This document shows positions 13,323 through 43,690 of a stretch of DNA of 64,000 bases, piece after piece (position 1 is the stretch's first letter; every line of letters begins with the position of its first letter). The stretch is from the NCBI GenBank assembly GCA_002010065.2, contig MTMD02000002.1:384001-448000 (forward strand), in the 5' to 3' direction. A program made the position numbers and the translations under genes. This DNA is from Candidatus Pyrohabitans jungbluthii. GTDB taxonomy: Archaea > Hydrothermarchaeota > Hydrothermarchaeia > Hydrothermarchaeales > BMS3B. The notes beneath the pieces are model-generated. The model did no database searches, was not told the origin of the DNA, and worked only from the letters and a program-made list of their open reading frames with translations.

Positions 13323-13530
13323 TTATTTCAACTCCTATCCCATGCCCCAGCATTTTTAGACTTTTGCTATATTTATGGTAAACCAGTTTTTATATTTTAT
13401 CACTCATATCCAAATCTTTTAAGCAAGTACTGAACAAAAAAGGGGATAAATATGCCCAGATCTGCAAAAAGATCTATGGTTTCTTGGGTCAACAGATAAG
13501 AGGATAAGATAATGCTATATTTGTAGATGT

Positions 13531-24471: not shown

Positions 24472-24535
24472 GGTGATACCTCTTTTCAATAGATTTTTAT
24501 TGTAGATTTATATAGGTTGTGGTAGAGGTGTTTGC

Positions 24536-25339: not shown

Positions 25340-25348
25340 TTTTTGATT

Positions 25349-25705
25349 GGTATCCACTGCTCCGGTGCGTTGCCACAGGCTTGCCTGTTTGTGATGTACC
25401 CACGGTAGCATTCGTCCGAGTACATGCCATATGGTAGCTTTACCTCCACCCATACATGTTCTACGAGGATTTTCTTGTTGGATAACTCAGCCGGTACATA
25501 ATTCTCCCATAATAGTTGTAGGGCTTCTTCCGTTGAGTTGACGCCCAGGACCATCTGCATGTACTCAGGTTCGACTTCTACTGTTCCAATCACAAACCTT
25601 GTTTGATATCCCGATGCCCTTAGTAAATCACTCAATAAGGCAGCCTGGTCGAAGTCGTTGCCTGCTTTCTCCCACATCGTCCACAGCGAGCCCTTCATGT
25701 AGCCG
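25349..25705 (-). pseudogene. Orphan fragment of the transglutaminase-like core of the 1188-aa toxin carrier
   Basis: Gap-free alignment to 34099-34455 (offset 8750): GYMKGSLW...GNDFDQAALL...HVWVEV...EQWIP. Differences are mostly third-position; there is an identical run at about 25448-25509. Confidence 0.9.
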
Positions 25706-25767
25706 CCACCTCTATTGCAATGTTAATATATTCATATTATTTTATTTAATTATCTGAAGAAAATCTC

Positions 25768-26238
25768 CTATTTTTCCAATAACCGTATAAAATAGATAGC
25801 TAGACCCATTATTACATAAAAAATACCCAATATTCCCACAATATCCAAATCTTCAGGTTTCAGTCCATATTGTAATGAATCATAAATAAAGAGCAGTGCC
25901 CAAGGAGACATAATAAATAAAAGTAATAATATCACTTTTTTTAATGTCCCGATTGCTTTTTTTACTTCTGGGTTCTCTCTTATGGGCTTTCTATAGTATT
26001 CTTCAAACTCTTCTGGATACTTTCGTGGAAAAATGAATGTTATGAATAACCCAAATAGCACCACAGTAATACCAATAGAAAATGTTAAAATATTATCCCA
26101 CCGATGAGTAAATTCTTCTCCTGTGATTATATGATATGAACTACTGAAAATAATCAAAACCATTAAAAAAACGAATAGAAAATAAGTCATTAAATATTGC
26201 CAGCTGACAAATTTTTCCATTGTTTTCTTTTTAATCAC
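25768..26238 (-). CDS. Putative immunity protein 4 (4 TM, FPRKYP motif)
   Basis: AT-rich; immediately downstream of the toxin-tip ORF; paralogous to the other three 4-TM genes. Confidence 0.75.
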   Translation of the reverse strand: MIKKKTMEKFVSWQYLMTYFLFVFLMVLIIFSSSYHIITGEEFTHRWDNILTFSIGITVVLFGLFITFIFPRKYPEEFEEYYRKPIRENPEVKKAIGTLKKVILLLLFIMSPWALLFIYDSLQYGLKPEDLDIVGILGIFYVIMGLAIYFIRLLEK

Positions 26239-26241
26239 TTG

Positions 26242-26496
26242 TTAGTCACCCCATCTACCTTTAGCCCATCTTGCCAGTCTATCAATACCTTTAGAGGCAA
26301 GATAGGCGCCACCGATTACCATTGCCCCGGCAGCAATCGCTGGTGCTGTAGCCAAACCAGCTCCTGCAATAGCTCCCATAGCCAGATACGAGCCCACCAC
26401 AACACCGTATTTTCCTGCTCCTGCAACAGCGTCAATAACTGCATTATTATATTGACCATTATCGAGGTCTCTTTTTTGAGGACAGCAGACAGACAT
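26242..26496 (-). CDS. Orphan toxin tip 4 (Gly/Ala-rich hydrophobic hairpin only)
   Basis: RDLDNGQYNNAVIDAVAGAGK...YLASKGIDRLARWAK aligns with the end of the 451-aa ORF (KDLEEGNKRNAAIDIAAGVAK...YAVDKGIDYATEWAK). Has a GGAGG RBS and ATG. Confidence 0.7.
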   Translation of the reverse strand: MSVCCPQKRDLDNGQYNNAVIDAVAGAGKYGVVVGSYLAMGAIAGAGLATAPAIAAGAMVIGGAYLASKGIDRLARWAKGRWGD

Positions 26497-26505
26497 TTAT
26501 CCTCC

Positions 26506-26994
26506 CTATTTTTCTATTTGATGAATATGATATAACCCCATTCCACAAATCACTGCAACTGCGATAATGTCAAATATTATATATCGGTCAATGTCTTTAA
26601 CCCCTTTTGGTGAAATGAGTAGTACAAATAGCACAAATCCTATGAGAATTAATGGCAGCCCCACCAGCGCTCTTTTTACACCTTTGAAGTCATAATTTTC
26701 TTTTACATGTTTTTTATATAATTCAAAATCTTCTGGGTATCTTTTAGGGAAAATCACGGTAAAAAAAAGTGCAAAAGAGAGAGCTATGACGTACAAAAAG
26801 TATGAGATCGTAGCTCTTATATCTAGCAAATAGTCACCAGTAAAACTATGATATGCCGCAAAAAAGCCGATGGAAAAAATTCCCAATGATATCAGAATTG
26901 GAGAGAGTCGTTTTTCTAATCTGATGAATTTATTTATATCTGATTTAGGATTTCGTTTATTTTTAGTTCTTCTATTTTGCACCATTTTAATCAC
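26506..26994 (-). CDS. Putative immunity protein 3 (4 TM, FPKRYP motif)
   Basis: AT-rich; starts within about 10 nt of the orphan toxin 3 stop; shares the motif of the other immunity-like genes. Confidence 0.75.
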   Translation of the reverse strand: MIKMVQNRRTKNKRNPKSDINKFIRLEKRLSPILISLGIFSIGFFAAYHSFTGDYLLDIRATISYFLYVIALSFALFFTVIFPKRYPEDFELYKKHVKENYDFKGVKRALVGLPLILIGFVLFVLLISPKGVKDIDRYIIFDIIAVAVICGMGLYHIHQIEK

Positions 26995-27002
26995 TCCATT
27001 AT

Positions 27003-28582
27003 CTAAGACTTAGCCCATTCCGTTGCATAATCAATCCCTTTATCAACGGCATAACTTGCCACTACAACTAATGCTACTGCTGGTAAACTGGATGCAGTTA
27101 TACCTGCCAAAACTGCAATTGCTCCTATTTTTGCAACGCCTGCAGCAATATCAATAGCTGCATTTCTCTTATTTCCTTCTTCAAGGTCCTTTTTTACCTT
27201 TACATATGTGTCATGTATAACTAACCCAGCAGCCAATAATCCAAGTCCTCTCTTTACCCACTTAGCTTTACTGGTGAACGACTCCAGGGACTTTGCTTCG
27301 CTGTATGCCGCCTTAGCTGCGCGGCTGCTTTCTTTAAACTTGGCAAGGTATTCCCTGCCCTTAGGTGTATCTCCATACCTGTTTGCCCACTTCTTGTATG
27401 CTCCTGCCCTACCCCTCTCGGAGAGGTATTCCTTCTTCTTTGCTATCGACTGAGAGTTAGACCTGAACTCTGCAGTAGAGACCATGAAGTCTGCAACACC
27501 CATGCCCAGCTCGTAGTCAGGCGAGGAGGTGTCGATAACCCTGTTGCCGTACCTGCTCAGCCTCCGCTTTAGCGCATCGCCATCGCTTGCCTGGTAGTTC
27601 CTCACGTAGTTTTCTACGCTGTTTGGCTGCCTGGACTCGTAGTACTCCTTCTGGGAGTACGTCTCCCCGCTGCCGCCGTGTATCACATTCCCCAGGTCGT
27701 CGCCGATCATCCAGGCGTTGGCGCCAGTGGTCGGGTCTATAACGAGCCAGCCAACGCCGGTCCAGTTGCCTATAACTAAAGAGCGAGCGGGGACCAAAAC
27801 CTCAAGCCCCTGGTTTACGGCGTTGCGGATCGCCTCTCTGGCGGTAGCAGGTATCTCAAGGGTTTCGATTTTATCGGCGTTGGCAGAGGTGATGCGGTAA
27901 ATCGGCACTCCACCCCTTGCTGCTATCTCGAAGATGTTTACGGTGGAAACGCCTGAGGCGTTGTAGAAGTACTCGAAGGCCTGCTTTTCCCACGATGAAG
28001 AGATACCGCCAGCCATGAGGGCGAAGGCTCTTCTTAAGTCTTTATCGCCCTGGAGGGAGAGCACATTCCTCGCCACGTCGATGTGCGCAAAGCTCGGCTC
28101 TATAGCTGTGGGTATGCTCCCGGCATAGGCGGTTTCAAATTTGTAGCCGAAGACCGCCACCGCCGGCGAGGAGCGCCACCACCTGACGCCCATGCTCTCT
28201 GCGAGCATCTGGTAGTTAAGGTCGCTCATGGAGAAGTAGGTAAGGGCATTTAGGGCAAGGTAGCCACCATAGCTCCTGTCAAGGAGCATGTCACCCAAAT
28301 CAAAGGCTATGGCATAGTAGTTGCCAACCTGTAGTGGAGAGGTCACCACCTCACGCATGTTGGGCGTGGTGATGGTGATTTGAAGCTCCTGCCTCGTGCC
28401 AAAGTGGAGGCGTTACCTATGGCTATGATTATGGAGTCAAACATGAGGATGGGCCTGAAGTCGAGGAGGTAAGCCGGAAGGTCGGTGAGGGAAGCCTGGG
28501 CGTTGACAAGCTCGGCAATGTCTTCATTGGCAGGGACGTAGTCGAGGGTTAGCTGCTTGCCAACGGTCTCCACTGCGGCCAT
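27003..28582 (-). pseudogene. Orphan toxin cassette 3: 5'-truncated, frameshifted carrier remnant with intact variable C-terminus (27003-27668)
   Basis: 28343-28582 and 27003-28358 are two frames of one paralog, with a 1-nt deletion near 28404 (NAST|FGTRQELQITITTPNMREVV). There is also an in-frame deletion of about 22 aa after FDLG. Junction reads DPTTGANAWM...IHGGS. Confidence 0.85.
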
Positions 28583-28612
28583 CGAGTATCAGCTCCGCTA
28601 AAGTCAAATGGT

Positions 28613-29095
28613 TCATTCTTCTAGTAATTTCTTTAAAAATCTTCGAGCTAGTAATAGCATAATAGTCCCAAAACCAGATTCAATGATAAGTCTGTCGTTT
28701 TTGCTTCCAATTATATCTCTAAAGAAAATATTAAGTATCACCAAAATAATAAAGCCCCCACCTATAATAACTAAAAGGAAATTTATTATTTTTATAGCAT
28801 TTTTGATACCCTCTTGTCCTTCAGGGCTACTTTTAACTAACGATACGTATTTTTTTGTAAGTCTTGGGAATTGCCTTGGAAAGACGAAATTCAAATATAA
28901 TAACAAAATTATCATAAAAATCAAGAAAATTAAAAGTATATTATCCGCCAATTCACTTTCAAATTTGCCGTGCTTGTAAACCTGGTAATTGTAAATTACA
29001 AGAACTAGTAGCCCAATAGTAGGAATAATCGTATTTAGAAAATCAAATAATGGCTCATATTTTTTCAATATCCTCTCTATTTTTTCCTCATTCAT
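28613..29095 (-). CDS. Putative immunity protein 2 (4 TM, FPRQFP motif)
   Basis: AT-rich; ATG overlaps the stop of the 668-aa ORF (ATGAATGA). Confidence 0.78.
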   Translation of the reverse strand: MNEEKIERILKKYEPLFDFLNTIIPTIGLLVLVIYNYQVYKHGKFESELADNILLIFLIFMIILLLYLNFVFPRQFPRLTKKYVSLVKSSPEGQEGIKNAIKIINFLLVIIGGGFIILVILNIFFRDIIGSKNDRLIIESGFGTIMLLLARRFLKKLLEE

Positions 29096-31229
29096 ATCTC
29101 AGTGCTCCATAAATGTCTTTTACACCATCAGCCAGTCCATCAATTATTTTATGTGCAAGATACTCACCTGCAGAAATAGCGGCACCAGCAGCTGGCCCAA
29201 CAGCTTTCCCTACACCTGGTATCTTTTTCACTTTTCTCGCTACCATTATATCTGCATAAAATGCAGCTCCTGTAATAGCTCCTTTAGCAACTCCAGCGCT
29301 AAAATCGACGCCAGCATTGAAATACTTACGTTCTTCTAGGTCAGCTATTACATTATCAGCTGTTTTCTGTGCAATTAAGCCAAGACCTGTGACAGTCAGA
29401 ACTTTATTGAAAACTTTTGCTCCTGTGCTCAACGCACCTTGTGCTCTTGCATTTTTTATTGCTCGGGTAGCTGCTTTTTCAAATTCTATAGCTTTATCTA
29501 TATATTTTTTAAAATCGTCGCCATAACTTCCTGCGATGTCTGCCATCCTTCTGTACTCGATGGCGTTGAGGGTATTGTCCACATAATCTTTAATGCTTGA
29601 GGCGAATCTATAATCCTCCACATAGGACATCGTCTTAAAATATATTCCTCCTCCAAGTAGGACCTCCTCAACAGGCAAATTTATTTGCTGGTCACCTTCG
29701 GGATTTACATCTTTTATCTTTTTGATAGTATTCTCCACTCCTTTTTCTTTCTCCTCTTGAACTCTTTTTTGTTGGTTTTTATTAGATTCGACGGTGCTGA
29801 ATTTTACTGTCTCTTGCCCGTGGTAAATATTTCCACTACCGCCGTTTATTATTGTGCCCAGTTCATCACTGAGCATCCATGCTGATGCTCCTGTAGCTGG
29901 ATCTATAACGAGCCAGCCAACACCTGTCCAGCCGTCACGAGTGATCTGGCGGGAGGGTACATATACTTCATACCCATTATTGACAAAGCTAAAAATTGAC
30001 TCACGTACCTTTTCAGGAAGATCAAGCTGGCTTATGACTTCTATGTTACCTGAGTTGAGATAGTAAATTGGAATTCCATTCTGGTTTGCAATTTCTAAAA
30101 TATTCGCTGTAGAAATTCCAGAGACGTTATAAAATAGCTCAAATATTTTGCTCTCCCAAATTGAAGAAAAACTACCTGCCTGAATAGCAAAAGCAAGTTT
30201 CATATCATTTCTGCCTTGAATTGACAAAATATTTCTAATCACATCAATGTGTGAATATCCTTCTGTTATCGTGGTGGGTATACTAACCACATACTCAATA
30301 TTGAAGGTATGCCCAAAGACTGCTATAGCAGGTGAATTTCTCCACCATCTCACGCCCAAGGCATCTGCGGCAATATCATTGCTGATATCCAACATTCCGA
30401 AGTAGTTGCTTAAGGTGAGGGACATGTAACCACCTATGTTGTGGTCAAGAACCATCGTTCCTCCTTCTATGATGCCTTCGAAGGTTCTATTCCAAAGCCT
30501 TTCTATGTGCTCTGAAGGCATTTTTCCCAGATCAACACCTATAGCGTAGTAATTCCCTACTGTCACCGGAGAAGAAACCACTTCTTTACTATTTGGGGTA
30601 ATTACCGTAATCTGAAGTTCCCCTTCTGCTCCAAACTGAGAAGGTTCACCAACCGCGATTGGAATGGAGTTGAGCATTAAAACAGGCCTAAAGTCGTAGA
30701 GATAGGCAGGGCTTTCATTTAGGAATTCCTGTACATTTGCCAGCTCCGCTATATCGGCATTAGCAGGCACATAATCAAGGGTCAGTTGATTTCCCGCTAA
30801 TATAACGGTGGGAATGTTTATGGAAAGAGTTGTTCTTTGATTTTCAACTACACTGACATTTAAGATGTGAAGGTAGTCGTCCGGAATCTCAGAGTAGCGC
30901 TCAAAGGCAACAAGCGAGTAGGGCAGAGTTCCGGGTATTATATCCGGCTTTACATCCGGCGGCCTGTCAGCGTAGAGTGCCTCTACCTCCTCCTCGGTCA
31001 TGTTCTCCAGCTTGGCACCAACGTTCTCGGCGTACCAAGCGTCGGTGAGGTTCATGAGCTCGCTCACGGCAAGGTCGAGGCCGCTGAAGTTCATGCCTGT
31101 GAAGTAATCCTCGCCGAAGGTGGCGTTCTAAAGGGTTTCGAGGAAGACGCCGGTAAGGTTGTAGTCAATAGCAGCAGCCGGGTAGGGTTTCTTCGGCTTA
31201 TAGGGTACGAAGGCAGGGTCAAGAAGCAT
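29088..31229 (-). pseudogene. Orphan toxin cassette 2: 5'-truncated carrier (668-aa ORF from 31094) with its own variable C-terminus (29088-29834)
   Basis: Paralogous to the 1188-aa protein. Homology extends upstream of the ORF (LDPAFVPYKPKKPYP) through an in-frame TAG at 31128-31130. No signal peptide or TGase core. Junction reads DPATGASAWM...INGGS. Confidence 0.85.
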
Positions 31230-31261
31230 CTTCTTAATCACCTAGTTAGGTATTCTTCTCT

Positions 31262-31311
31262 GTCCATAGTACCCTCCTAATCACCTAATTCGATCACCTG
31301 CTCGTCTTTTT
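31262..31311. repeat. 50-bp direct repeat, copy A
   Basis: gtccatagtaccctcctaatcacctaattcgatcacctgctcgtcttttt; 48/50 identical to 31848-31897. Confidence 0.92.
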
Positions 31312-31853
31312 GTATATGAGGCTTGTTCAGCGTCTTCTCTAAAGCCTGCTTTCTTAAACAGGAAATAATCAGCAACTAAAATTACTACTATTAATAGTAG
31401 ACCTACTGAGCGAAGCATATCAGCAGAAACTATCGGCAAACCTTCGGCTAATACTATAAAAAAATTTATTATAGCCACAACTAAGGCAAACGAAATCAAA
31501 AACGCAGTATTTTTTTTATGTTGTCTAAAATTCACACTTTTTTTTCTTTCTTGGACATATAAATAAAACCTCAGTGGATGTTTTTTAGGAAAGAAAAAAT
31601 AAAACCTTATCATGTCAAGAACTCCAATTAATAAAATTATTATTAAAAATTGTAGAAATTCAGGTGGTAAGAAAACTATTTTGCCAAAATGAATATGATA
31701 ATATGCCATAATTATGAAATAACCTGTAACAACTAACCTCCCCAAAAGCTTGTAATTGTAGTAGTTTTCCACCATTTTCTTTGCTTTGGCAAGTTCTTGC
31801 ATGTATTCTTCTTTTGTAACTCCGAATTTTTTCATTATCGCTTTCTCGTCCAT
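31281..31853 (-). CDS. Putative cognate immunity protein 1 (4 TM, FPKKHP motif)
   Basis: AT-rich; GGAGGG RBS; starts 9 nt after the toxin stop. Confidence 0.8.
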   Translation of the reverse strand: MDEKAIMKKFGVTKEEYMQELAKAKKMVENYYNYKLLGRLVVTGYFIIMAYYHIHFGKIVFLPPEFLQFLIIILLIGVLDMIRFYFFFPKKHPLRFYLYVQERKKSVNFRQHKKNTAFLISFALVVAIINFFIVLAEGLPIVSADMLRSVGLLLIVVILVADYFLFKKAGFREDAEQASYTKRRAGDRIR

Positions 31854-31897
31854 AGTACCCTCCTAGTCACCTAATTCAATCACCTGCTCGTCTTTTT
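31848..31897. repeat. 50-bp direct repeat, copy B (toxin 3' end + RBS + immunity start)
   Basis: gtccatagtaccctcctagtcacctaattcaatcacctgctcgtcttttt; encodes KDEQVIELGD* followed by GGAGGG and ATGGAC on the minus strand. Confidence 0.92.
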
Positions 31898-34800: not shown

Positions 34801-35429
34801 ATATCGCTGAGCAGAGGCTCAACCTGAGCAAGTGCGAGCATCGCCTCGGAGGTGTGGTTGCTCGCGATCTCCTCCCTGAGCCGGGTTAGGGCGGCTGAGA
34901 GGTTCTCAAGGCTGGAGAGGAGCCGCCGGTTTTCCTGCGTCACGAGGGCGACCACTTCTTCATGCTTCTCCAGCTTCTGCCTCGGGATGCGCTTCTTTAC
35001 CTTCTTCAGCTTCTTGGTGACGCTGTCGGCGGAGCTCCTGAACCTCTCGTCCGCCGTGGCGAGCTCGCTTTTTGATTGGTTGAGGACCGTGAGGTAGAAG
35101 TCGACCAACTTAAGCGCATCCTCGGTGTCGCCCTCCTCCAGCTCCATGCGTATGTCCTCGGTGAGCATGCGGAAGAGGGAAAGCTCACCCTTAAATCCCT
35201 GCTTCAGCCGGGAGAGCTCTTTAAGAGCATGAGTGTACTTGCCGCCCAGGGGTTCGAAGGGCGGATCCCTCAAACCGAGGGTTATAAGCATGAGGTTGAT
35301 AGCCTTCCCGAGGGGAGAATCCCCTCTGGGCTGAGAAGCCCCGCCTGGCAGTGCGCCGGCTGCGGCGTAGGCGGCTGGAACAGGGGAGAGGAGCATGAGG
35401 AGTATCATGAAAAGCGCTCTGCCGCTCAT
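31863..35429 (-). CDS. Secreted polymorphic toxin candidate: signal peptide, coiled coil, transglutaminase-like core, conserved carrier region, variable C-terminus (31863-32702)
   Basis: Signal MSGRALFMILLMLLSPVPAAYA; IYAYVRDEIEY.PY.G, GNDFDQAALL...LRAAG, HVWVEV, WIPLDPT. Paralogs diverge abruptly after INGGS. Confidence 0.82.
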   Translation of the reverse strand: MSGRALFMILLMLLSPVPAAYAAAGALPGGASQPRGDSPLGKAINLMLITLGLRDPPFEPLGGKYTHALKELSRLKQGFKGELSLFRMLTEDIRMELEEGDTEDALKLVDFYLTVLNQSKSELATADERFRSSADSVTKKLKKVKKRIPRQKLEKHEEVVALVTQENRRLLSSLENLSAALTRLREEIASNHTSEAMLALAQVEPLLSDITPLLEKPAKPAVKVKAPEQLPTRPSGGKPIKPRTTFPKEKPKPLPKHAEAREEKPLLGRLIEKLTTLLPSAFAEEQGDAASPVPPEIANLSAQLDHNPAKIYAYVRDEIEYTPYYGYMKGSLWTMWEKAGNDFDQAALLSDLLRAAGYQTRFVIGTVEVEPEYMMQVLGVNTTEEALQLLWENYVPAELSNKKILVEHVWVEVKLPYGMYSDECYRGYIANREACGNAPEQWIPLDPTFVPYKPKEPYPTADLDYDLDNLFEYIINSTKITEDYTIFSKDTVSMISNSTAELKNQSDQWYYENIGLLHKNLTWEEFDALYASKPPKTGPEIIPGTLPYSVVVSERYNKIPAEFVHLIKIEIVEEGKTVLSFNISSVNTLGNQITIDYIPADDSMSEFVNSQESLTDIPAYMLDYRPVLRVNSLPFALGNASSFGVKQELRVSIITPNNLDVVSSPLEVGGYYAVAFDLGKMPSEVIKKQAARTLDGIYENLNGNLLIDHALGASMYLSLLSYFEMTDLNSQLLAEAQGVRWWRASPSVAVLGVTFDTDYLGSVPTTIEPGYTHIDLARNILSIQGSSSEKKKFAFMAGAISSSWEHVLFDTLYNSTGVSTINLFKGAAELGVPIVNINQHNIDKLNISEPNIERSIKNAVEQGYTVFAPMNFIRIGKVKMYGWLVLDPATGANAWMIADELGTVINGGSTEKQELNEILDKAKEKNIEEFFTDLGKESVWDTMIESIQRAIEENRQLTVEEKRFVDDALKEIGTVETDGNTDVEDSLSLWDRFRTPFAIGRGIVNDRIKTQAKKTEQEVEEIRGIRDALKNSVRTLKGWVTRYINMGDIEKAIEAEKKYMNLDSVVDDLSDILVDKETKLVTQKTAAKAITGLGALVVASEAAADIEDDFANRRWDKFVVDTASCYVRVVNSIAWDVAEIGSGFLATGVTVGASLFIDETIKKGTEYIKTRLDKPPVEKDEQVIELGD

Positions 35430-38400
35430 TTCTTACCGCCTCCCTTCTTCGGCTCTATGGTTACATTCGAAACCAGCTCAACGGTCTCGTTCCCCTCAGG
35501 CGAGGAGTAGGTGATGAGCGTTTTGAGCGTGAAGGTGGTGGTCTCGCTCACCTCGGGGTTGAGGAGCACGTACTCCAGGGTTCTGCTGCTTCTTGGTTCG
35601 AGGGCGGTAAAGCTCCAGGTTATGCTGCTGTTCGCGGCGCTGCCGTCGCTGGAGTCTATCACAAACGCCTCCGGTATCTCCTCGGTTACGGTAACGTTCT
35701 CCGCCGACACGCTGCCCGTGCTGGAAATGCGTATGCTCACTCTGGTCTTAGCTGCCTTGCCCTCGTCCTGAGGCTTGAGCTCCTTGGTAGCGCTGAGGGA
35801 GGCGATGCTCTCGCATGCTTCGAGGCTCCACAGGAGAGCACGCTTTGTAATGTTGAGCCACACACTGGCGTTGTAGCCCTCGTAGGAGCTGAGCGCGATA
35901 TCCGGGGCGAAGAAGATGACCCTGCTTCCGTTGTAGTAGGAGAGGGTTAAGGCGGGGTAGCTCTCAGTCTCCTTTGTCGGCAGCATGTCCAGGGCATAGG
36001 CAAGCACCCTGTAGGTGTATTCCGGCTCAATCTTCGCGAGCCATCCCACCGTGGTGAGGTTCGCTCCCACATAGCCAGCGGTAAGGTGGTGCTCCTCCGT
36101 TATGGTCAGATTCCTGGGCTGATACGGCTCGCCCATCGGCAGGCTGCCGAGGTACTTGAAGCCGGCGATGTCTCCAAGGCCGGGATTGGCCTTGAGGGTG
36201 TAGTCGGAGAATATCAGCTCCCTGGTGAGGCTTCCCCGCTCACTCAGCCATGCCTTTATCTCCTCTATTTCGGTGCTATTCAGCTCCCCTTCTTCAGTGC
36301 AGTCGTACTCGCAGTGCCCCATGTTCAGGAGCCACAGCACGGTGTAGTAGCTGCTCCGAAGCTCGTGCATCAGCTCCTGCGTGGTGTTCACCTTCTTCAC
36401 GTAGGCTATCTCTTTAGCGGCTTCGTCGATGAACCACTCGTCGCTGGCATCGCCACTCCAGGCAAGCACCAGGATGGGGATTACTGTTACATTCGCCGAG
36501 GAGGAGTTGTAGTAGGCATAGCCGTCCTCGTCGTAGTAGGTGATGTTCAGGTTAAGGGTTATGTTGCGGATTTCGGGTATGAGCTGCGCCTCTGCAGAGA
36601 AGTTCAGGAGCACGCCATCCTTTGGCGGAAGCTCGAGGCTCCAGGTTACTGTGCCGGTGCTGGCGTTGAAGGATGCGTTTTCCAAGGTGTTCTCCAGCAC
36701 CCTGAGCTCCTCGGGTACTGTCAGGAGAGCGGTAATATTGACTGCGTCGTCGTAGCCGAGGTTGGTGATGTTCACCGCCACCGCAATGCTGTGGCCGCTG
36801 TAGGCTGCGCTGGGTGTGATTATCTCCCCTTTCAGCAGGGGTATCGGCTTGACCAGGAGCGTTTTCTCCACGCTGGAGACGTATGTTCTGCCGTAGTAGT
36901 CGAGGTAGAAGGCCTTCGCTCTGAGGGTGTAGTTTACGGGGTCGAAGCTGTGGATGAAGGGTGTGAGGAAGGTGTAGGCGACGCCTGCGCTTCCTTCGCT
37001 GGTGATGTCGCCCAGCTGCCAGGTTATGGTGGTGGTACCGCCATTGTAGTCGCCGGAGTAGCTAAGGGCGGTGAAGTTCTCCGGCAGAAGTGCGACGAGG
37101 GAGGTGTTGACAGCGGTGTTCTCCCCGGTGTTCCTCACTGTTAGGTTCGCATTTACCACCTTCAGGGCCCTTGTAGCGTAGGTGCTGAGGCTCTCCTCTA
37201 CTACCAGGTGGGGCACCTCAACGACCCTGAAGGATTTGGAGGCGGCCGCAAGGGCGGTGCCGTTCCTCAGCCTTAGAGTGGCATTAAGGAGGTACTCACC
37301 GCTTCCGTTGCGCGGGGTGAAGTAGTTGTGCACGTATTTTACCTCTCCAGGAGCTATTGCCGGGACATTGAGCACCCACCTGCTCAGGGTGGAGTTCCTC
37401 TTCGTCAGCAGGAATTCCACATAGGAGTCTTCTAGGGGCGTGTTCGGGCTGGTGTTGTTTATCTTCACGTAGGAGTCGACGATCTCGCCCAGCCTGTAGA
37501 CACCCCTATCGGTGAACAGGTTCATCTCCGCGCCTATTGCGCTGGCCATCTCGAAGAACGTGGTGGCGTTGGCCAGGGTGACGTTCAGCTCTCCTATGAG
37601 GGTACAAGCAACGGTGTAGTTCCCGGGCGCAAGTAGAGAGGTGTTGTTCAGAGGCAGAGAGAAGCTCAGGTTGCTCGATGGTGGAAGCACCGCTATCTCC
37701 ATGGGCTGCGCAGAAACTCTCGCGCCGGTGGGTGTGTCGATAAACGTGCGCAGGGTGAGGTTGCCCAGCGTCTGGTTGCCGTTGTTGCTCACCGTGCCGA
37801 CAAGCTCTATGGTGTCGTAGGGTGAATATACCCGCCTGCTCGTATTTATGCTGAGGCTCACCACATTCAGAGCTTCCACCTGCAGGGGCGGGAACTCTCT
37901 GACGACGCTGGCTGAGGTTACGCCGTCGACGTAGCTTATTCTCGCCTTTGAGATGTTCCTCTTCTCAAGGGCGGAGAGGACGAAGGAGACGTTGTACAGG
38001 ATGTTTATGGTCTCCCCGTTCTGTATCTCGGGGAATATCCATACAAGGGTGTTGTTGGCTGTATAGTTGGGAGGAGTGATGGGCTCCGCCTCGCCGTAAA
38101 GCACCTCCTCCTCGTAAGTGACGTTTATTCCAGCCAGTAGGTGGGTGCCGTCCAGGATTTCACGTTGATAGTTCATGGCTTCAACCAGCTCCTCATAGCT
38201 GGTGGTGAAGTTGAATAAACCGCTGGTTACACCCGTTACGGAGCCTGTAGTGGTGGAAGGAGTGGTGGGAGCTTCTCCGGGTTCTTCGGCAGCAGGCGGA
38301 GGAGGCTGAGGAATGAACACCGGTATGTAATAGTATACTACGATGGACGCTTCGGCGATATTACCACTGGTGTCAACGGCTCTGACGGTTATCCTGTTTG

Positions 38401-41400
38401 CTCCGTAGCGGAGGGTTAGGGGCTTACCCCAAGAAGTTGTGCCGTCCGCCGGTTCCCAATCTCCGTAATTCAGCCTTACTTTCACCTCCCTAATCCCCCT
38501 GTTGTCCGAGGCATTGCCTTGCAGCACTATACTGCTCGTCTCAAAACTCTGATATGTCTCCGGATATAAAATGGTCACATTGGGCGGAGTAGTATCCGGG
38601 GCACCTCTGATTACGGTGATAGAAGCATTAGCCGCAACACCCAACGTGTTGGTGGCCCTCACCACAATCACATTGGGACCTGGACGGAGGGTTACCACTT
38701 TCTCCCAGTGAGCAGTCCCGGAAGCTGGCTCATACGGCTCACCGTTAACACTCACCTCCACTCTGGAGATTCCTCTCTCATCATATGCAGTGCCATTAAC
38801 CACCACAGTCTCAGTGTAAACCGTTTCGTTGTTCTTTGGATAGGCAATCTCTATAGACGGCTGGATGTATTCCAGGGGATAGCATCCGCCATCGGAGGCG
38901 CAGATTGTACCCGAGGGGCAGAATTCACGTGTTATGCTGTATCCCTTTGGATATGAGGAGGAGAGGATACAAACCACATCATAGGGGTCGGAGTTTGTGT
39001 CCGCTGCAATGCATTCGTCACTCAGCTTAGCATAACAGCCCATATTCTCAGCCAAGCATAGAGCACTGTACTGGTAATTGGCACAGAAAGAAACAGCTTC
39101 TTCGCCATTCTTACCGCATGCTTTGTAGCCAGCAGGACCATACCACCGTTCATTAGTTTGACGCCAGTACTCTAATATAGGTAGTTCGTACTTATTATCA
39201 GAGTGATAATGCTCATAAATGTATTGCCTATAGAAGAAATCGGTGACGCTGCACTCAACACCAACTAAATTGACAGGATATTCTTCTATTTTTTCATAAT
39301 AATCGTAATTTGTTAATAGCCGATAATATTCATACCTACATGGTCCCCTTTTCTTGGTAAATGTATAAATGTTTAAATATCTTGGGGTAGAATAAGCGGG
39401 TATCTCGCCCTCATATGCTTTAACTGATATCATATCGCCGGTATCTGGGGATACCAGCCCAAACATTGAAGCGGGAGCCCAGCATTCTACAATAAAAGTC
39501 TCACCAGCATCAAACACACCATTGTTATTCGGGTCGCTTACAAGCGTGCAGTTCTGACTGCTGTTTTTACTGACCCATGCAGAAGCGCTTTCCTTTACCT
39601 CAAGGTAGTCTCCAATTTTAAGGAATTTAACTCCAATCTTCCACTCCCTCTTGGAGGAATCCAGATTCTTGGCATTTACTTTCACCCTTATCTCCTTCGT
39701 TGGCAGCACAAATATGTCGCCATAATCAATCCATGCGTTCCTGCTGGTATCATATATTTTAAAAGAGACCTCCATGGTCGGTTCTGGGAGATATGGGCAG
39801 TAGCCACCTCTTGCTATGTCAGTGGAGGTGCATTGTAACCCAGAAGCATCGAGGGCAGATCCGCCAAGTGGGTCCGCGCAGTATCTTATTCTGGCGGTAT
39901 TACAGGAGATTTTTCCAAGATAGGTGGTATTCAAAATAAGGTCCACTGCCCCAGAAGAGTGTATAAAACCCTGATTGGAAAATGCGATATTGGATGAGAT
40001 ACTTATGTTTGCTGAGAGGGGGTTGCCATCAGCACACTTATCATCACCCACACCTCCTGTGCCGATTAAAGAAGAAATGTTTCCTTTGCTGGTTATGATG
40101 AGTAAATCGGCAGATATGGCTACTTTTCCGGCATCACCGCCTCTTGCATTCTTATAGCAGCCACAGCTAATTTCGCTGCTAAATCTCCCCCCATTCCCAC
40201 CGTTCGCTGCAATAGAAGTGTTTACTATAACCATGGCTGCCTGAATATCAACCACTCCACCGTTGCCTCCTGGTCCGCCCTGTGCGTCGCCCCTTCCCTT
40301 ACCTCCCCGGGCGCCGTTCACATAAATCGGGAAATTAATGCTCACATTTGTGCCTCTGAGTATCACGCTTCCGCCGTTTCCACCTTTGCCGCCAAAACCG
40401 GTACAGGCATCGTCATCGCTGCTTTCATATCCACTTCCACCCCGTCCGCCAACCGCCTTCAGGTAACCATTGACAGTTATTTCCGAATTGGATTTAATAT
40501 AGATTTTTCCAGCATTTCCGCCGTCTCCACCGTCCCTGCCGAATCCTCCGTTTGCGGTTATGCTACCGCTAACAACTGTTTTATCGGAATTGATAGTTAT
40601 CGTACCTCCAGGACCGGCACTCCCACTATGGCGATACGCATCCCCCGAATTCCCACCTGCAGCAAAAATATCCCTCCTTATATAAACCTCACCAGCATCT
40701 ATACTTATTGAACCTGCTGTTCCTCCACCGCCACCGAAACCATAGCCCTTACCATTTCCGCCATTTCCACCATTTGCAGAGACGACCGAGTTAATTAACA
40801 CTTTTGATGCTTTGAAATAAATCGAACCTCCGCTTCCTCCTCTCCCACCATCCGAATCGGTACCACCACCTCTCCCGCCGTCCCCGCCTCGTGTGGATAG
40901 GGGGGCATACACTCTTATCTCAGTTGCTTTAAAATTAATTAGACCTGCACTACCTCCGGTTCCGCCAGTTCTGTAACTTCCACCTATTCCACCAATTCCA
41001 CCATTCGCGGAAACTGCTCCATAGATGTTAATTTTTTCTGCCTTAACAAAGATTGAACCACCATGCCCACCGCTTCCACCATTCTGCAACCATCCTCCAT
41101 TTCTCCCTCCTCCCCCATTCGCAGAAAGACTTGCACCAGCGTTTATTTGGAAAAGATTGTTCGCATAAAATCTAACATTTCTCGAATTCCTGCCCTCTTT
41201 TGGCACCACTACTGTACCGGTGATGTAGATGTTTGGAGCTTCACAGACGTAGGTTTGGGCATCAAGATTGCATTTTTCTTCAATATCTGCTGCTGAAGAA
41301 ATGTACAAATCAGATTCTAAAGCATAAGAAGAATGGGTAAAGAATATTAAAACGAAAATGCCTAATAAAGAAATTCTCTTAAACCATATGAATGGAATTC

Positions 41401-41428
41401 TTACAATAGGGAGGATTATCTTATTCAT
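35426..41428 (-). CDS. 2000-aa secreted surface protein: Gly-rich repeats, Cys-rich region, two bacterial Ig-like domains, Pro/Thr linker, CARDB/DUF11-like Ig domains
   Basis: N-terminal signal-like stretch; two PxIxIxxP...GxAxDxxGI..V.V...GT..W...L..G.N.I.VRA repeats; many N-x-S/T sequons; stop overlaps the toxin start (ATGA). Confidence 0.85.
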   Translation of the reverse strand: MNKIILPIVRIPFIWFKRISLLGIFVLIFFTHSSYALESDLYISSAADIEEKCNLDAQTYVCEAPNIYITGTVVVPKEGRNSRNVRFYANNLFQINAGASLSANGGGGRNGGWLQNGGSGGHGGSIFVKAEKINIYGAVSANGGIGGIGGSYRTGGTGGSAGLINFKATEIRVYAPLSTRGGDGGRGGGTDSDGGRGGSGGSIYFKASKVLINSVVSANGGNGGNGKGYGFGGGGGTAGSISIDAGEVYIRRDIFAAGGNSGDAYRHSGSAGPGGTITINSDKTVVSGSITANGGFGRDGGDGGNAGKIYIKSNSEITVNGYLKAVGGRGGSGYESSDDDACTGFGGKGGNGGSVILRGTNVSINFPIYVNGARGGKGRGDAQGGPGGNGGVVDIQAAMVIVNTSIAANGGNGGRFSSEISCGCYKNARGGDAGKVAISADLLIITSKGNISSLIGTGGVGDDKCADGNPLSANISISSNIAFSNQGFIHSSGAVDLILNTTYLGKISCNTARIRYCADPLGGSALDASGLQCTSTDIARGGYCPYLPEPTMEVSFKIYDTSRNAWIDYGDIFVLPTKEIRVKVNAKNLDSSKREWKIGVKFLKIGDYLEVKESASAWVSKNSSQNCTLVSDPNNNGVFDAGETFIVECWAPASMFGLVSPDTGDMISVKAYEGEIPAYSTPRYLNIYTFTKKRGPCRYEYYRLLTNYDYYEKIEEYPVNLVGVECSVTDFFYRQYIYEHYHSDNKYELPILEYWRQTNERWYGPAGYKACGKNGEEAVSFCANYQYSALCLAENMGCYAKLSDECIAADTNSDPYDVVCILSSSYPKGYSITREFCPSGTICASDGGCYPLEYIQPSIEIAYPKNNETVYTETVVVNGTAYDERGISRVEVSVNGEPYEPASGTAHWEKVVTLRPGPNVIVVRATNTLGVAANASITVIRGAPDTTPPNVTILYPETYQSFETSSIVLQGNASDNRGIREVKVRLNYGDWEPADGTTSWGKPLTLRYGANRITVRAVDTSGNIAEASIVVYYYIPVFIPQPPPPAAEEPGEAPTTPSTTTGSVTGVTSGLFNFTTSYEELVEAMNYQREILDGTHLLAGINVTYEEEVLYGEAEPITPPNYTANNTLVWIFPEIQNGETINILYNVSFVLSALEKRNISKARISYVDGVTSASVVREFPPLQVEALNVVSLSINTSRRVYSPYDTIELVGTVSNNGNQTLGNLTLRTFIDTPTGARVSAQPMEIAVLPPSSNLSFSLPLNNTSLLAPGNYTVACTLIGELNVTLANATTFFEMASAIGAEMNLFTDRGVYRLGEIVDSYVKINNTSPNTPLEDSYVEFLLTKRNSTLSRWVLNVPAIAPGEVKYVHNYFTPRNGSGEYLLNATLRLRNGTALAAASKSFRVVEVPHLVVEESLSTYATRALKVVNANLTVRNTGENTAVNTSLVALLPENFTALSYSGDYNGGTTTITWQLGDITSEGSAGVAYTFLTPFIHSFDPVNYTLRAKAFYLDYYGRTYVSSVEKTLLVKPIPLLKGEIITPSAAYSGHSIAVAVNITNLGYDDAVNITALLTVPEELRVLENTLENASFNASTGTVTWSLELPPKDGVLLNFSAEAQLIPEIRNITLNLNITYYDEDGYAYYNSSSANVTVIPILVLAWSGDASDEWFIDEAAKEIAYVKKVNTTQELMHELRSSYYTVLWLLNMGHCEYDCTEEGELNSTEIEEIKAWLSERGSLTRELIFSDYTLKANPGLGDIAGFKYLGSLPMGEPYQPRNLTITEEHHLTAGYVGANLTTVGWLAKIEPEYTYRVLAYALDMLPTKETESYPALTLSYYNGSRVIFFAPDIALSSYEGYNASVWLNITKRALLWSLEACESIASLSATKELKPQDEGKAAKTRVSIRISSTGSVSAENVTVTEEIPEAFVIDSSDGSAANSSITWSFTALEPRSSRTLEYVLLNPEVSETTTFTLKTLITYSSPEGNETVELVSNVTIEPKKGGGKK
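40110..41130 (-). repeat. About nine Gly-rich protein repeats (xANGGxGG...GGxGGxIxIxA) within the 2000-aa ORF
   Basis: Counted from the translation; units are about 30-45 aa and diverged at DNA level. Confidence 0.8.
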
Positions 41429-43502
41429 TCTCCCCCTCCTTAGAGTAAATTATCATATAAACAGGAATCCCATTTTCAGCTGCCCACTCGATAGCGCTCA
41501 GGGGATCGTCATAGCTAGGAGCCCTCACCACAGTGAAGATGTACCAGTTTTTGTCCCCCCTACCGTTTTCCAGTAAGATTTCGACGCTTCTGTTTATCCC
41601 CTCTCCGAGTTTGAGTATCGGTGCTCCTATCGTTATGCTCGAAATTGCACTCAGCGCTGCATCTCTGTCTGTTGATAGATTCAATAAGACTGTGGTGGTG
41701 TTTGAGACAGCGACCACGGCAACTCTGTCTCCCACGGCAAGGGAAGTGACGAAGGAATTCAGAGCGGTTTTCACATCCTCTAAGGCAGAAGTGGAGAGGT
41801 TGGTGCAGTCCACTAAAATAACGACATCTGCCGGGGGCTTGCCAGTTTTGCCCTGGATTGTGACGTTTATGGTGGCAGTGACTCTTCCAGGTGGGAAGGT
41901 TTCTGAGCTTATCCTCCTTTCCACCCTAATCCTAGGCCCGATGGATAGTGCTGAATACGTTGTCCCCCCTTCCACAAGTGCTCCATCTTTATAGACCCTA
42001 GCAATGACCGGGTAGGTTCCGTAGGCAAGGTTTCCGGTATAGAGGGTACCCACCTTAATGTATCCCCTCTTCCCGACGTTGAGGGTGGCGGTGGTGTTGC
42101 TGGACCAGAAGACCGTCTGATTGGGAGATAAAAGTTCAACCTCTATAAAAGCATCGCTGATGTTCCTGTTGCCGATGTTTTCCACATCTAGATAGAAATT
42201 CACCAGCGATTTTATGTCGGCATGGGACGGAATTATCTCCAGCCTGTGAATCCTAACCTTTTGCGTTGGAAGGACGTTCAACTCCGTCTGATTCGCGTGA
42301 ATCACGCGGCCTTCGCCATCTCTAATTTCCACAATCAAGTATGCAGCACCAGGCATGAGATGGTCGGTGACAAAGTAGGAGGAATAGCCCACCACAGAAC
42401 CCGCTGTGAAATCTCGTATGAGCTTGGGTGGGAGAATTTTTACGATTTTCTTTTCCTGAACCACCTTGCCCACAATTATTATATTTTTCTGATTTTCTCC
42501 CAAATTGGAAATCTGGGTAAATAGCGAATATTCCTCACCAGCTGGTATTGAGAAATTCGCAAGGGTGGAGTTGTCTTTTTTTATAATTAGGTTCCCCATC
42601 CTCAGGGCGATGCTCGATTTCAGATACTCCTGCAGGGCAAGCAGGCATTGTGATGTCGTATATGCCCTTCCTGAAGCATCAAGTCCCCAGCTTCCATCAG
42701 GGTTCTGACTATTTATCAGTGCTGTGACAAGATTCTCTTTCTCATCAGCAAAATGGCCATTATAAACTAAGGCTTGTAGAGCATTTGCTAATTCGAGTTC
42801 GCCAGAAAGTGTCCCCAAATTCTCCGAAAGATGAGCTGCGGATTTGTAGCCAGCCTTGTAGGCGTCCTCATTGAATATCAGCTCATTGTCAGTTAAAACG
42901 AAGGATAATTTTCCAAGTGTCTGAGAAGCCAAGGCTGTGTAAAGATTATCTGGCGCAAAAGAGCCATCTTGTTGCTGGATTTTCTCCAAGTAGGCGATTC
43001 CCCTTCGCAGAGAAGTGGAATTTGGGCTGGATTTTTTTAGCGCCTCCAATGCGAGGGAGGTATCAATTATGTTGCTTGAGAAAAACGTTGAATATCCCCA
43101 GCCACCGTCTGAGTTCTGGAAAGAGACCAACGATGAGGCATTTGCCCCAATTAGGAGGACTTTTCGGGAGAGGAAATCAGTCCCCTCTATATTGGCAAAA
43201 GAAATCCAGGATTTGCCATTTTCAATGGTGTCTGAAGCATCTATGTAATCTTGATTCTCAAGGGCTAATATGGCTTCGGCTGTACTCCATGGCAGACCTC
43301 CATCCCAGCTGCCATCGGCATTCTGGTTAAGGACCAACCAAGATGCTCCTTTTTCGATGCTATCCTGGACAGATAACCCAAACACCGGGCTTATGCATAG
43401 TGATAAGACCAGAAAAAGTCCACTGAAATGTAATAATCCCTGTATTATGTTTCCATCTGGAAATTGGCAGGCCAAACCTTTTAGCATGGTCCCTGCATCC
43501 AT
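41421..43502 (-). CDS. Secreted protein: prenyltransferase/squalene-cyclase-like (QW) repeats, Ig-like domains, incomplete vWA domain
   Basis: QNADGSW, QNSDGGWG, QQQDGSF, QNPDGSWG; ADVVILVD...DRVAVV...GIPVYMI. Start probably ATG 43502 or 43487, because the listed upstream part is AT-rich promoter DNA. Confidence 0.8.
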   Translation of the reverse strand: MDAGTMLKGLACQFPDGNIIQGLLHFSGLFLVLSLCISPVFGLSVQDSIEKGASWLVLNQNADGSWDGGLPWSTAEAILALENQDYIDASDTIENGKSWISFANIEGTDFLSRKVLLIGANASSLVSFQNSDGGWGYSTFFSSNIIDTSLALEALKKSSPNSTSLRRGIAYLEKIQQQDGSFAPDNLYTALASQTLGKLSFVLTDNELIFNEDAYKAGYKSAAHLSENLGTLSGELELANALQALVYNGHFADEKENLVTALINSQNPDGSWGLDASGRAYTTSQCLLALQEYLKSSIALRMGNLIIKKDNSTLANFSIPAGEEYSLFTQISNLGENQKNIIIVGKVVQEKKIVKILPPKLIRDFTAGSVVGYSSYFVTDHLMPGAAYLIVEIRDGEGRVIHANQTELNVLPTQKVRIHRLEIIPSHADIKSLVNFYLDVENIGNRNISDAFIEVELLSPNQTVFWSSNTTATLNVGKRGYIKVGTLYTGNLAYGTYPVIARVYKDGALVEGGTTYSALSIGPRIRVERRISSETFPPGRVTATINVTIQGKTGKPPADVVILVDCTNLSTSALEDVKTALNSFVTSLAVGDRVAVVAVSNTTTVLLNLSTDRDAALSAISSITIGAPILKLGEGINRSVEILLENGRGDKNWYIFTVVRAPSYDDPLSAIEWAAENGIPVYMIIYSKEGENE

Positions 43503-43514
43503 TAAATATTTGAA

Positions 43515-43560
43515 AAATTTTTTATAAAGCGCGTATTTTTTAAAACCTATATATAATTTT
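43515..43560 (-). promoter_or_regulatory. Probable TATA-box promoter of the toxin operon
   Basis: TTTATAAA on the minus strand about 20-27 nt upstream of ATG 43502, within an AT-rich stretch. Confidence 0.45.
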
Positions 43561-43690
43561 TTAGAAATTTCTTTCAAATAAAATCGATGATTTGCATTTA
43601 GTAACTTTTTGTTATTGAACACGCCTTCAAAAAATGGCAATGCCTATTTTCATCCCTCATGGCCATAAGTGAAGTATCTCCAAGGTTTAA

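Follow-up and report, generated by a model that had tools for sequence, protein, structure and literature searches.

The window analysed here is a 64,000-nucleotide (nt) stretch of Candidatus Pyrohabitans jungbluthii DNA (contig MTMD02000002.1, positions 384,001 to 448,000), and the nearest named relatives of the organism are records titled Candidatus Pyrohabitans (Hydrothermarchaeota). Between its NAD synthase and SIS-domain genes lies an 18.3-kb island in which every gene is on the minus strand. At the centre of the island is the gene for an 1188-amino-acid (aa) protein, referred to here as the carrier, in which a transglutaminase-like core and a middle domain are followed by an exchangeable C-terminal region, the tip. 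Directly behind it is a small gene for a polytopic membrane protein, and further downstream are 5'-truncated copies of the carrier gene with other tips (orphan 1 and orphan 2), again followed by small membrane-protein genes. The operon has the layout of a polymorphic toxin locus, and we read it, with a probability of roughly 0.65, as a Sec-exported polymorphic toxin/immunity locus of an uncultured archaeon. The pattern goes beyond chance because the repeats in the locus are long (300 nt at 82% identity; 99 nt in three copies) and because the architecture recurs in other genomes. Open reading frames (ORFs) are transcribed from the minus strand in the order 739-aa, 2000-aa, 1188-aa, 190-aa, 668-aa, 160-aa, 451-aa, 162-aa, 84-aa, 156-aa and 168-aa. 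The 739-aa and 2000-aa genes overlap by 8 nt, the 2000-aa and 1188-aa genes by 4 nt and the 668-aa and 160-aa genes by 8 nt, and the remaining gaps are 3-9 nt, which bears out the original prediction of a single co-oriented operon with overlapping stop and start codons. Window coordinates of the carrier, its modules, the downstream genes and the two flanks are listed below, with guanine-plus-cytosine (GC) content where it is distinctive and TM standing for transmembrane.

31863-35429, minus strand: full-length carrier, 1188 aa, with a putative signal peptide (aa 1-23), a coiled coil and Pro/Lys-rich linker, the core, the middle domain and tip 1
34089-34508, minus strand: transglutaminase-like core without the catalytic Cys, carrier aa 308-447 (Pfam Transglut_core)
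32700-34043, minus strand: unannotated middle domain of about 450 aa, carrier aa 463-910
32703-32771, minus strand: conserved junction motif DPATGANAWMIADELGTVINGGS, beyond which paralogs and homologs diverge
31866-32699, minus strand: tip 1, 278 aa, helical, carrier aa 911-1188
31281-31853, minus strand: 190-aa polytopic membrane protein, putative immunity protein of tip 1, GC 31%
31262-31326, minus strand: scar, an 89% copy of 31848-31912 (last tip 1 codons, ribosome-binding site and start of the four-TM gene)
29088-31230, minus strand: orphan 1, a carrier copy from aa 463 ('LDPAFVPYKP') with an in-frame TAG; ORF 29088-31094, 668 aa
28613-29095, minus strand: 160-aa polytopic membrane protein, putative immunity protein of the orphan 1 tip, GC 29%
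27003-28570, minus strand: orphan 2, a copy of the carrier starting near aa 590 and frameshifted by 1 nt; ORF 27003-28358, 451 aa
26506-26994, minus strand: 162-aa four-TM protein, putative immunity protein of the orphan 2 tip
26242-26496, minus strand: tip-only remnant, 84 aa, with 40% identity to the terminal part of the orphan 2 tip
25768-26238, minus strand: 156-aa four-TM protein, putative immunity protein of the tip-only remnant; its identity with the 162-aa protein is 32%
25349-25705, minus strand: terminal transglutaminase-core fragment (carrier aa 326-462), the start of the 168-aa ORF, with no four-TM gene after it
24536-25339, plus strand: NAD synthase gene, left flank of the island
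43691-44278, minus strand: SIS-domain gene, right flank of the island

The carrier's signal peptide, which would end in AYA just before the next A, was read by eye and with no predictor. A region of about 280 aa, comprising the coiled coil and linker, precedes the transglutaminase-like core, which is the carrier's sole Pfam match. A profile of nine family members aligned with the solved transglutaminase-like protein 3isr_A (E 5.3e-4), and the Cys of 3isr_A in 'GVCRDFAHL', which we take to be the nucleophile, aligned to D in the window's carrier ('GNDFDQA') and to A, S or N in its relatives. The conserved 'EHVWVE' and 'PLD' motifs, presumably contributing the catalytic His and Asp, are retained. 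Because the nucleophilic Cys has been lost, the domain probably binds rather than catalyses. In the same genome there is a second, isolated transglutaminase-core fragment (G000:C14:13113-13406, L005) in a 140-aa open frame with 45% identity to carrier aa 321-418, and the ORF downstream of it may, judged by eye only, encode a PIN/VapC-type toxin.

Neither Pfam nor NCBIfam has a model for the middle domain, and NCBIfam lists no family for the carrier or for the four-TM proteins. A structure model of the middle domain, of 488 residues, was obtained with a predicted local distance difference test score (pLDDT) of 83.3 and a predicted template modelling score (pTM) of 0.76. A Foldseek search of this model against the PDB returned nothing at E<=0.001, with TM scores of at most 0.13 among the matches listed; the wide VIA-align search gave a best Z of 6.9, to helical hairpins only; and the carrier sequence had no matches in the PDB at E<=1. 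Judged from the model, the middle domain appears to have no clear solved structural relative, and since the whole 488-residue model was searched, a new fold is unproven.

The middle domain ends at the junction motif, whose family consensus is DPxTGAGAYMISGGxxGG. It had been claimed that the paralogs match up to a fixed junction and then diverge. The change does fall at one place, just after carrier aa 909 ('...DELGTVINGGS'), but the heads of the three long copies are merely 49-56% identical, and beyond the junction 21-27% identity persists. Because the tips are still related to this degree, they are divergent relatives of one another and not unrelated domains. The 668-aa and 451-aa ORFs align to the carrier from about aa 490 and about aa 660 onward. 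The exchangeable tips are about 225-280 aa long; the last part of each is hydrophobic and rich in Gly and Ala, with conserved acidic and 'KGID' positions on either side.

Behind each tip in the window lies a small gene for a polytopic protein. The four encoded proteins are homologous (17-32% identity to the 162-aa protein), have the FP[KR]x[YFH]P motif in common and contain 3-4 hydrophobic segments each in a crude hydropathy scan. Their genes have a GC content of 29-32%, compared with 51.7% for the whole window, in agreement with their earlier description as AT-rich. The closest pair in one family corresponds to the closest pair in the other: the orphan 2 tip and the remnant are 40% identical, and the 162-aa and 156-aa proteins 32%. 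Among the 38 genomes of the phylum, many of which are incomplete, tip 1 was found in one, the window's own, and the four-TM profile also in that one alone, as four copies that all belong to this locus. In a collection of 5.8 billion proteins the four-TM profile had 4 matches, three of them the window's own. A search for tip 1 homologs among longer proteins gave no match, which is weak evidence.

Co-folding of tip and immunity pairs, the check proposed with the original prediction, was run on the orphan 2 pair and gave one confident result. When the C-terminal 125 aa of the orphan 2 tip were paired with the 162-aa protein, an interaction prediction score from aligned errors (ipSAE) of 0.88-0.89 was obtained in three runs, compared with 0.00 for the best of three controls. 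Of 80 solved complexes 58 attain this mark, as do 2 of 110 mismatched pairs, counts that are rough, our own 4-row alignments having been used. The runs agreed in at least 97% of contacts, with a partner pLDDT of at least 84, and the interface placed tip residues 90-123, the hydrophobic hairpin, along the helices of the partner. The model supports a binding of tip to four-TM protein that would take place inside the membrane.

The prediction had counted three further pairs of truncated paralog and four-TM gene. Only two long 5'-truncated copies are present, and the third pair does exist in the form of the 84-aa tip-only remnant with its four-TM gene. The scar lies directly behind the 190-aa gene, and the C-terminal tail of the 190-aa protein reads into it. 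Orphan 1 is 80-95% identical to a same-genus allele over its first ~375 nt; the remainder is low in GC, carries its own tip and appears to be foreign. Orphan 2 has 88% DNA identity to the 3' part of an intact carrier gene in another genome (locus L016, below). Contigs from four other sequencing runs (X5-X8) carry an extra G after 28403, the point at which the frame of orphan 2 changes, so the frameshift looks particular to the window sequence.

The history of the orphans can be read against an uninterrupted carrier gene that is present in two same-genus records, G007 (locus L010) and 'MAG: Candidatus Pyrohabitans sp. JdFR-17' (locus L016). This allele is 84% identical to the window's carrier over the N-terminal 300 aa and 92% over aa 301-462. 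Its middle part then corresponds first to the beginning of orphan 1 and next to orphan 2, and its tip is that of orphan 2 at 89%. Invariant C-termini in homologous loci had been named as the finding that would speak against a toxin system; the same-genus allele has a like head with a different tip, an outcome that favours the toxin reading. At the DNA level, L016 is colinear with three separate parts of the window.

43633-34036: 79-82% identity
31223 to about 30850: 80-95% identity in most 60-nt windows, about 60% beyond
28570-27347: 88% identity

The two blocks that intervene relative to L016 have a GC content of about 40-43%, compared with 55-58% for the resident pieces, and each consists of a middle domain, a tip and a four-TM gene. 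Within the present carrier gene, GC and identity switch at about 34430-34040, with GC dropping from 52-62% to about 40-46% near 34100. We read this arrangement as two successive replacements, each of which would have supplied the carrier with a fresh 3' half and displaced its predecessor downstream. Each replacement brought a middle domain of about 1.3 kb besides the tip. A second carrier locus in a same-genus genome has its own orphan, identical up to 'YMISGG' and different thereafter. Outside the locus, low-GC patches occur at 5001-6000 (42.8%) and 13001-14000 (43.9%), against 51.7% for the window, and may be other acquired DNA.

Public-run contigs were compared with window positions 24500-44000 at a likeness of at least 90%. 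A 26.7-kb contig of run X5, about 99% identical wherever it covers the window, follows the window from 24500 to 31311 and then jumps to 43366. The joint omits 12,054 nt, which are replaced by 60 other letters, and it is also found in X6 and X7. Missing from the X5 strain are the carrier, 2000-aa and 190-aa genes and the greater part of the 739-aa gene; the orphans and three four-TM genes remain. In X6 and X7, 28551 is joined to 30919 with 134 other letters between and sides of 93-101 letters, and in X8, 28570 is joined to 30919. These joints are the uninterrupted allele, without the foreign part of orphan 1 and the 160-aa gene. A further joint in X6 and X7, from 25336 to 43688 (sides of 35-36 letters, intervening letters not seen), is the empty site, with the flanking genes adjacent. 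A 2269-nt contig of X6 over the NAD synthase gene differs from the window in 42 of 707 letters; its link to the empty-site joint is not shown. The breakpoints inferred from the alleles therefore reappear as real polymorphisms in contig joints. These data show that modules have been acquired and displaced at this locus while the small membrane-protein genes were retained. In run X8, a contig from a 90-95% similar organism joins 25659 to 34420, skipping 8760 nt with 10 other letters and a side of 38, and a second joint runs back from 34547 to 27664; either a core mosaic of two transglutaminase copies or tandem carriers would produce such joints.

The fragment at the far end of the operon is 94% identical in protein to carrier aa 326-445 and abuts the NAD synthase stop codon. 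It corresponds to L016 positions 10975-11331. Its left end lies within about 30 nt of the point where the carrier's 95-97% identity to L016 ends, and its right end falls 2 nt short of where orphan 1 begins (L016 position 11333). It looks like the resident piece that was replaced by the incoming tip-1 module and that now lies 6 kb downstream. The block from orphan 1 to the terminal fragment looks like a circular permutation ('fragment + orphan 1 ...') and may be a trace of excision and re-insertion; excision through recombination between two transglutaminase copies, followed by re-insertion, would give the permuted arrangement. A site-specific or circular-cassette origin of the fragment was considered and is not established, as the distal fragment of a second carrier locus, L028 of Candidatus Pyrohabitans sp. 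JdFR-17, runs across the same boundary and does not stop there. This L028 piece, at about 12060-12700, is a decayed and frameshifted part of a carrier that starts where the transglutaminase core ends and reaches into the middle domain, and it lies beyond the orphan and small membrane genes of that locus; because of it, arrays in relatives can be said to end in carrier debris as well.

Upstream of the carrier are two genes for large secreted proteins, and a hydrophobic N-terminal segment is present in all three large proteins (739, 2000 and 1188 aa).

41421-43640, minus strand: 739-aa secreted accessory protein with an N-terminal hydrophobic segment, alpha/alpha-toroid (squalene-cyclase/prenyltransferase-like) repeats and a C-terminal von Willebrand factor A (vWA) domain
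35426-41428, minus strand: 2000-aa secreted accessory protein with Gly-rich N-terminal repeats followed by immunoglobulin (Ig)-like, DUF11 and CARDB domains

Pfam matched VWA (E 3.4e-9) and SQHop_cyclase_C (30.6 bits) in the 739-aa protein and DUF11, Big_7, Glucodextran_B and CARDB in the 2000-aa protein, so that, together with Transglut_core in the carrier, the domains first described by eye are consistent with Pfam. The 2000-aa protein is 79% identical to its counterpart in L016. A relative of the 739-aa toroid domain starts a giant protein beside the carrier in 8 of 13 mapped loci; two of the other five are contigs shorter than 5 kb. These carrier-adjacent giants are 1500-2400 aa long where complete, and four of them combine SQHop/prenyltransferase/TED-like, CarboxypepD_reg, CARDB, FG-GAP and MG2 domains. 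The giant proteins would form the surface structure that presents the carrier. Short stretches of 31-39% GC lie at 39200-39499, 41300-41599 and 43400-43699, inside or between the 2000-aa and 739-aa genes, in surroundings where the bulk of the 2000-aa gene has 51-60%, and the accessory genes may be mosaics too. In a genome of the same class, a carrier middle domain (G035:C39:48701-49822, L049; profile positions 78-461, E 1.3e-81) lies within a 4299-aa open frame, in which the carrier may have been fused to a giant surface protein.

Beyond the genus, a pattern scan covering one genome per prokaryotic species found 30 carrier loci, of which 21 were parsed. Five of the 30 are archaeal by title (two Candidatus Pyrohabitans, two Geoglobus and one Candidatus Hydrothermarchaeum), and the others are bacterial, including Geobacter and relatives, Nitrospinota, Candidatus Magnetocorallium, Lachnospiraceae, Acidovorax and Alkanindiges. 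In all carriers of the 21 parsed loci the conserved part ends in 'P[EAT]TGAGAYMISGG', and the 25 tails differ straight after it, which extends the variability of the C-termini well beyond the genus. At least two hydrophobic segments were present in 20 of these 25 tails. Extra truncated copies lie downstream of the carrier in six loci (L017, L028, L029, L043, L018 and L020), and a small gene with TM segments follows it in five (L019, L023, L027, L035 and L045). Within the phylum the middle domain is patchy, occurring in 7 of the 38 genomes, the window's own included, and in 6 of the 21 of good quality.

The middle-domain profile matched 6019 representatives at E<=0.001 and 2490 at E<=1e-30 among 1.84 billion. 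For a survey of tails, 155 proteins were taken, including the 150 listed representatives; the strict pattern matched 93 of them, the 62 misses being due to its strictness. Tails were 100-199 aa long in 61 of the 93 matched proteins, and 68 of the 92 tails of at least 40 aa had two or more hydrophobic segments. Some tails are known toxin domains. An NlpC/P60 domain was found in L017 (E 1.9e-13) and an XOO_2897-like deaminase in L033 (E 1.2e-12), and a Clostridium bornimense relative named 'HNH endonuclease' in its source matched PF14414 and PF12639, which we take to be WHH and colicin-DNase. Among seven long-tailed representatives, one had PT-HINT with AHH, one AHH, one Tox-REase-5 and one CBM9, and three had nothing beyond the transglutaminase core; Pfam found no RHS repeats in any of the seven. 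In the window itself, Pfam (E<=0.01) detected no Rhs, HINT, LXG, type VI secretion system (T6SS), FHA, VENN or DUF1020 parts in ten proteins, and NCBIfam no RHS/YD, TPS or FHA repeats, MafB-N (DUF1020) or LXG, so the reported absence of Rhs, Hint, T6SS and LXG parts stands.

We propose that the carrier would be exported via Sec, as its putative signal peptide suggests, and retained on the surface of the cell, probably alongside the two giant proteins co-transcribed with it, with which the conserved linkage connects it. Its middle domain would end in the Gly-rich hinge, with the exchangeable, all-helical tip behind. On contact with another cell, the Gly/Ala-rich hairpin at the C-terminus of the tip would insert in the neighbour's cytoplasmic membrane, where depolarisation or a pore is the most likely toxic outcome by analogy with pore-forming colicins, CdiA-CT(EC93) and TspA. 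In the producer's own membrane, the downstream polytopic protein would bind the hairpin and neutralise it, a role to which gene position, parallel divergence and the co-fold all point. New modules, each made up of a middle domain, a tip and an immunity gene, would be acquired horizontally and enter the carrier gene through recombination. The former 3' end would then be pushed downstream, where its toxin part decays and its immunity gene stays intact. The retained 162-aa gene would protect its host against the uninterrupted allele with the orphan 2 tip, which is present in X6 and X7. Because the orphan 162-aa gene matches the tip of the allele found in those runs, the idea of immunity can be tested ecologically.

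Several results weigh against a toxin locus. The tips in the window match no toxin family, the best Pfam match having an E of 0.017, below the cut-off, and PDB sequence searches with the tip profile and with tip 1 gave nothing below E 0.24. Pfam Colicin (PF01024) had no match at E<=1 in any of the four tips, and the best ESM Atlas score for tip 1 was 0.76, with a Colicin-bearing cluster at 0.75, which is below the meaningful range and counts as no more than a lead. AlphaFold2 made the orphan 2 tip all-helical from a 6-row alignment, but with a mean pLDDT of 45 the model is unreliable and unfit for fold searching. In the crude hydropathy scan, neither tip 1 nor the orphan 1 tip showed a strongly hydrophobic 19-mer; both are amphipathic, rich in Gly and Ala, and unlike classic TM helices. 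A co-fold of hydrophobic helices can also be over-confident. Bacterial relatives that carry nuclease or deaminase domains have hydrophobic segments between the hinge and the enzyme, and the hydrophobic part could thus be an anchor or translocation element and not the toxin itself. No delivery apparatus was identified. Finally, identity between the paralogs before the junction is only about 50%, and in DNA 69-74% at best, and because of these low values the orphans look like fossils and not like a recombination-ready reservoir.

The alternative that survives best is non-lethal recognition of kin or self, in which the tip touches or enters the neighbour's membrane and is read there by the polytopic partner, a match meaning 'self' and nothing being killed. 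Proteus IdsD/IdsE is reportedly an analogous system. Such a role would suit a locus that varies strongly from strain to strain, whose polymorphic part and partner are both membrane proteins that diverge in parallel and meet, in the model, inside the membrane, and whose tips have no enzymatic domain. Makarova et al. 2021 (PMC8416519) raise self/non-self discrimination as a possible role of a different hypervariable module on archaeal surfaces. However, the nucleases, deaminase and cell-wall hydrolase of the relatives point to killing as the ancestral use of the family, and partner genes kept while the orphan tips decay are what immunity predicts. Nothing in the analysis separates recognition from true killing, and taking these points together we consider recognition unlikely.

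The prevalence of short tails with 2-4 hydrophobic segments in the family invites another interpretation, in which the carrier belongs to a surface adhesin or envelope complex, the hydrophobic C-terminus being a membrane anchor docked to its polytopic partner and the variation being due to drift, transfer or virus pressure. The conserved neighbours, giant Ig/CARDB/MG2/FG-GAP surface proteins, would be at home in such a complex, as would the long tail that ends in a CBM9 carbohydrate-binding module, and the tips contain no detectable toxin family. An anchor does not explain, however, why hypervariability starts at the hinge, why serial replacement leaves orphan pairs, why partners stay intact beside decayed tips, or why known toxin domains occur on the same scaffold, and diversification under virus pressure would be expected in the exposed part rather than in the membrane part. 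We regard this interpretation as quite unlikely. A decaying remnant, whether junk gained by horizontal transfer or an assembly chimera, in either case without present function, would account for the stop codon of orphan 1, the frameshift of orphan 2, the fragments, the scar and the close relatives that are without 12 kb or the whole island, and none of the listed runs with matching sequence is recorded as RNA; such a remnant is nevertheless very improbable given that the 739-, 2000- and 1188-aa genes and all four four-TM genes are intact with coupled junctions, that the three upstream genes are about 80% conserved in L016, that runs X1-X4 contain 98-99% of sampled words (although they may include the source sample) and that the independent 26.7-kb contig reproduces 24500-31311, low-GC junctions included.

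The locus is a Sec-only candidate in a deep-subsurface or hydrothermal lineage, and its evolutionary record is legible: an ancestral gene, two nested replacements, retained putative immunity genes and natural deletion variants. More tentatively, at somewhat under even odds, the family as a whole might be a widespread and still unnamed Sec-dependent surface weapon common to bacteria and archaea, with a nucleophile-less carrier, a giant TED-like/MG2/Ig partner and, as its usual cargo in place of an enzyme, a hypervariable membrane-inserting hairpin that a polytopic protein neutralises. The window would then be the first archaeal case of this weapon in which the displacement of tips can be read directly from co-occurring strains, and it would mean that archaea with no contractile injection system wage membrane-targeted warfare at the level of strains. 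The carrier family, with its 6019 representative clusters, is large and uncharacterised and could be mined for membrane-active toxins and immunity proteins.

Pore-forming or ionophoric toxins paired with small membrane immunity proteins include the colicins with their Cai- and Cei-type proteins, CdiA-CT(EC93)/CdiI and Staphylococcus aureus TspA/TsaI. The system described here resembles them in its helical C-terminal domain of about 200-280 aa, the hydrophobic hairpin near the end, the adjacent polytopic protein and the parallel divergence of the two. Unlike colicins, it has no colicin-type receptor-binding or translocation domains, and it gave no match to Pfam Colicin or to a solved chain.

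The general kind of system is already known, as polymorphic toxin systems include ones with an inactive transglutaminase module. The original prediction had mentioned transglutaminase-like carriers in bacterial surveys, and rightly so: the part of Zhang et al. 2012 (PMC3482391) available to us describes an inactive transglutaminase domain in Sec-dependent polymorphic toxins. As in those toxins, the window's carrier has a putative signal peptide, a lost catalytic residue, variable C-termini, a downstream putative immunity gene and cassettes, and the AHH, REase-5, XOO_2897 deaminase and PT-HINT domains on its relatives are toxin domains of the same catalogue, as far as that part of the paper covers it (PMC3482391). 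A two-helix toxin domain, W-TIP, is also described there and can be placed beside the pore-forming or ionophoric toxins as a near relation in kind (PMC3482391). In the examples given in that portion, RHS repeats follow the transglutaminase domain, whereas the window's carrier has a domain of about 450 aa in this position and no RHS (PMC3482391). Most tails of the carrier family are also hydrophobic hairpins and not enzymes, and the window's host is an archaeon, both unlike the systems in the portion available (PMC3482391). Across the titles and opening lines of abstracts that were searched, the carrier architecture is undescribed, and so are the link to TED/MG2-like giants, the predominance of hairpin tails with polytopic immunity genes and the archaeal displacement history.

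In archaea, polymorphic toxin systems have been predicted, and according to the accessible text of Makarova et al. 2021 (PMC8416519) none had been experimentally characterised as of that year. A haloarchaeal antagonism study relies, in the part of the report at hand, on a T6SS-like contractile injection system (PMC11566945). The closest archaeal likeness is to VARTIG of Thermococcales, whose authors compare the module to polymorphic toxin systems in the text available (Makarova et al. 2021, PMC8416519). Like the island in the window, VARTIG is described there as a strain-variable island with a large secreted protein whose C-terminus recombines, followed by small membrane proteins (PMC8416519). 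The two are compared by description, and on the available description they differ in the variable part, which in VARTIG is the C-terminal Ig domain of arCOG07710 and here is a helical tip with no Ig domain (PMC8416519). No Ig-type Pfam match was found in the variable region of the window's proteins, and the words 'transglutaminase' and 'vWA' are absent from the VARTIG paper (PMC8416519).

In gene arrangement, the locus is set apart from Rhs, CdiA and MafB by the absence of RHS, FHA, VENN and DUF1020, by orphan conserved regions that are only about 50% identical and by the replacement of the middle domain along with the tip. It is like the orphan arrays of Rhs, CdiA and MafB in that a full-length gene and its putative immunity gene are followed by 5'-truncated copies with other tips and putative immunity genes of their own, and, as in those arrays, the orphan of one strain is the main tip of another.

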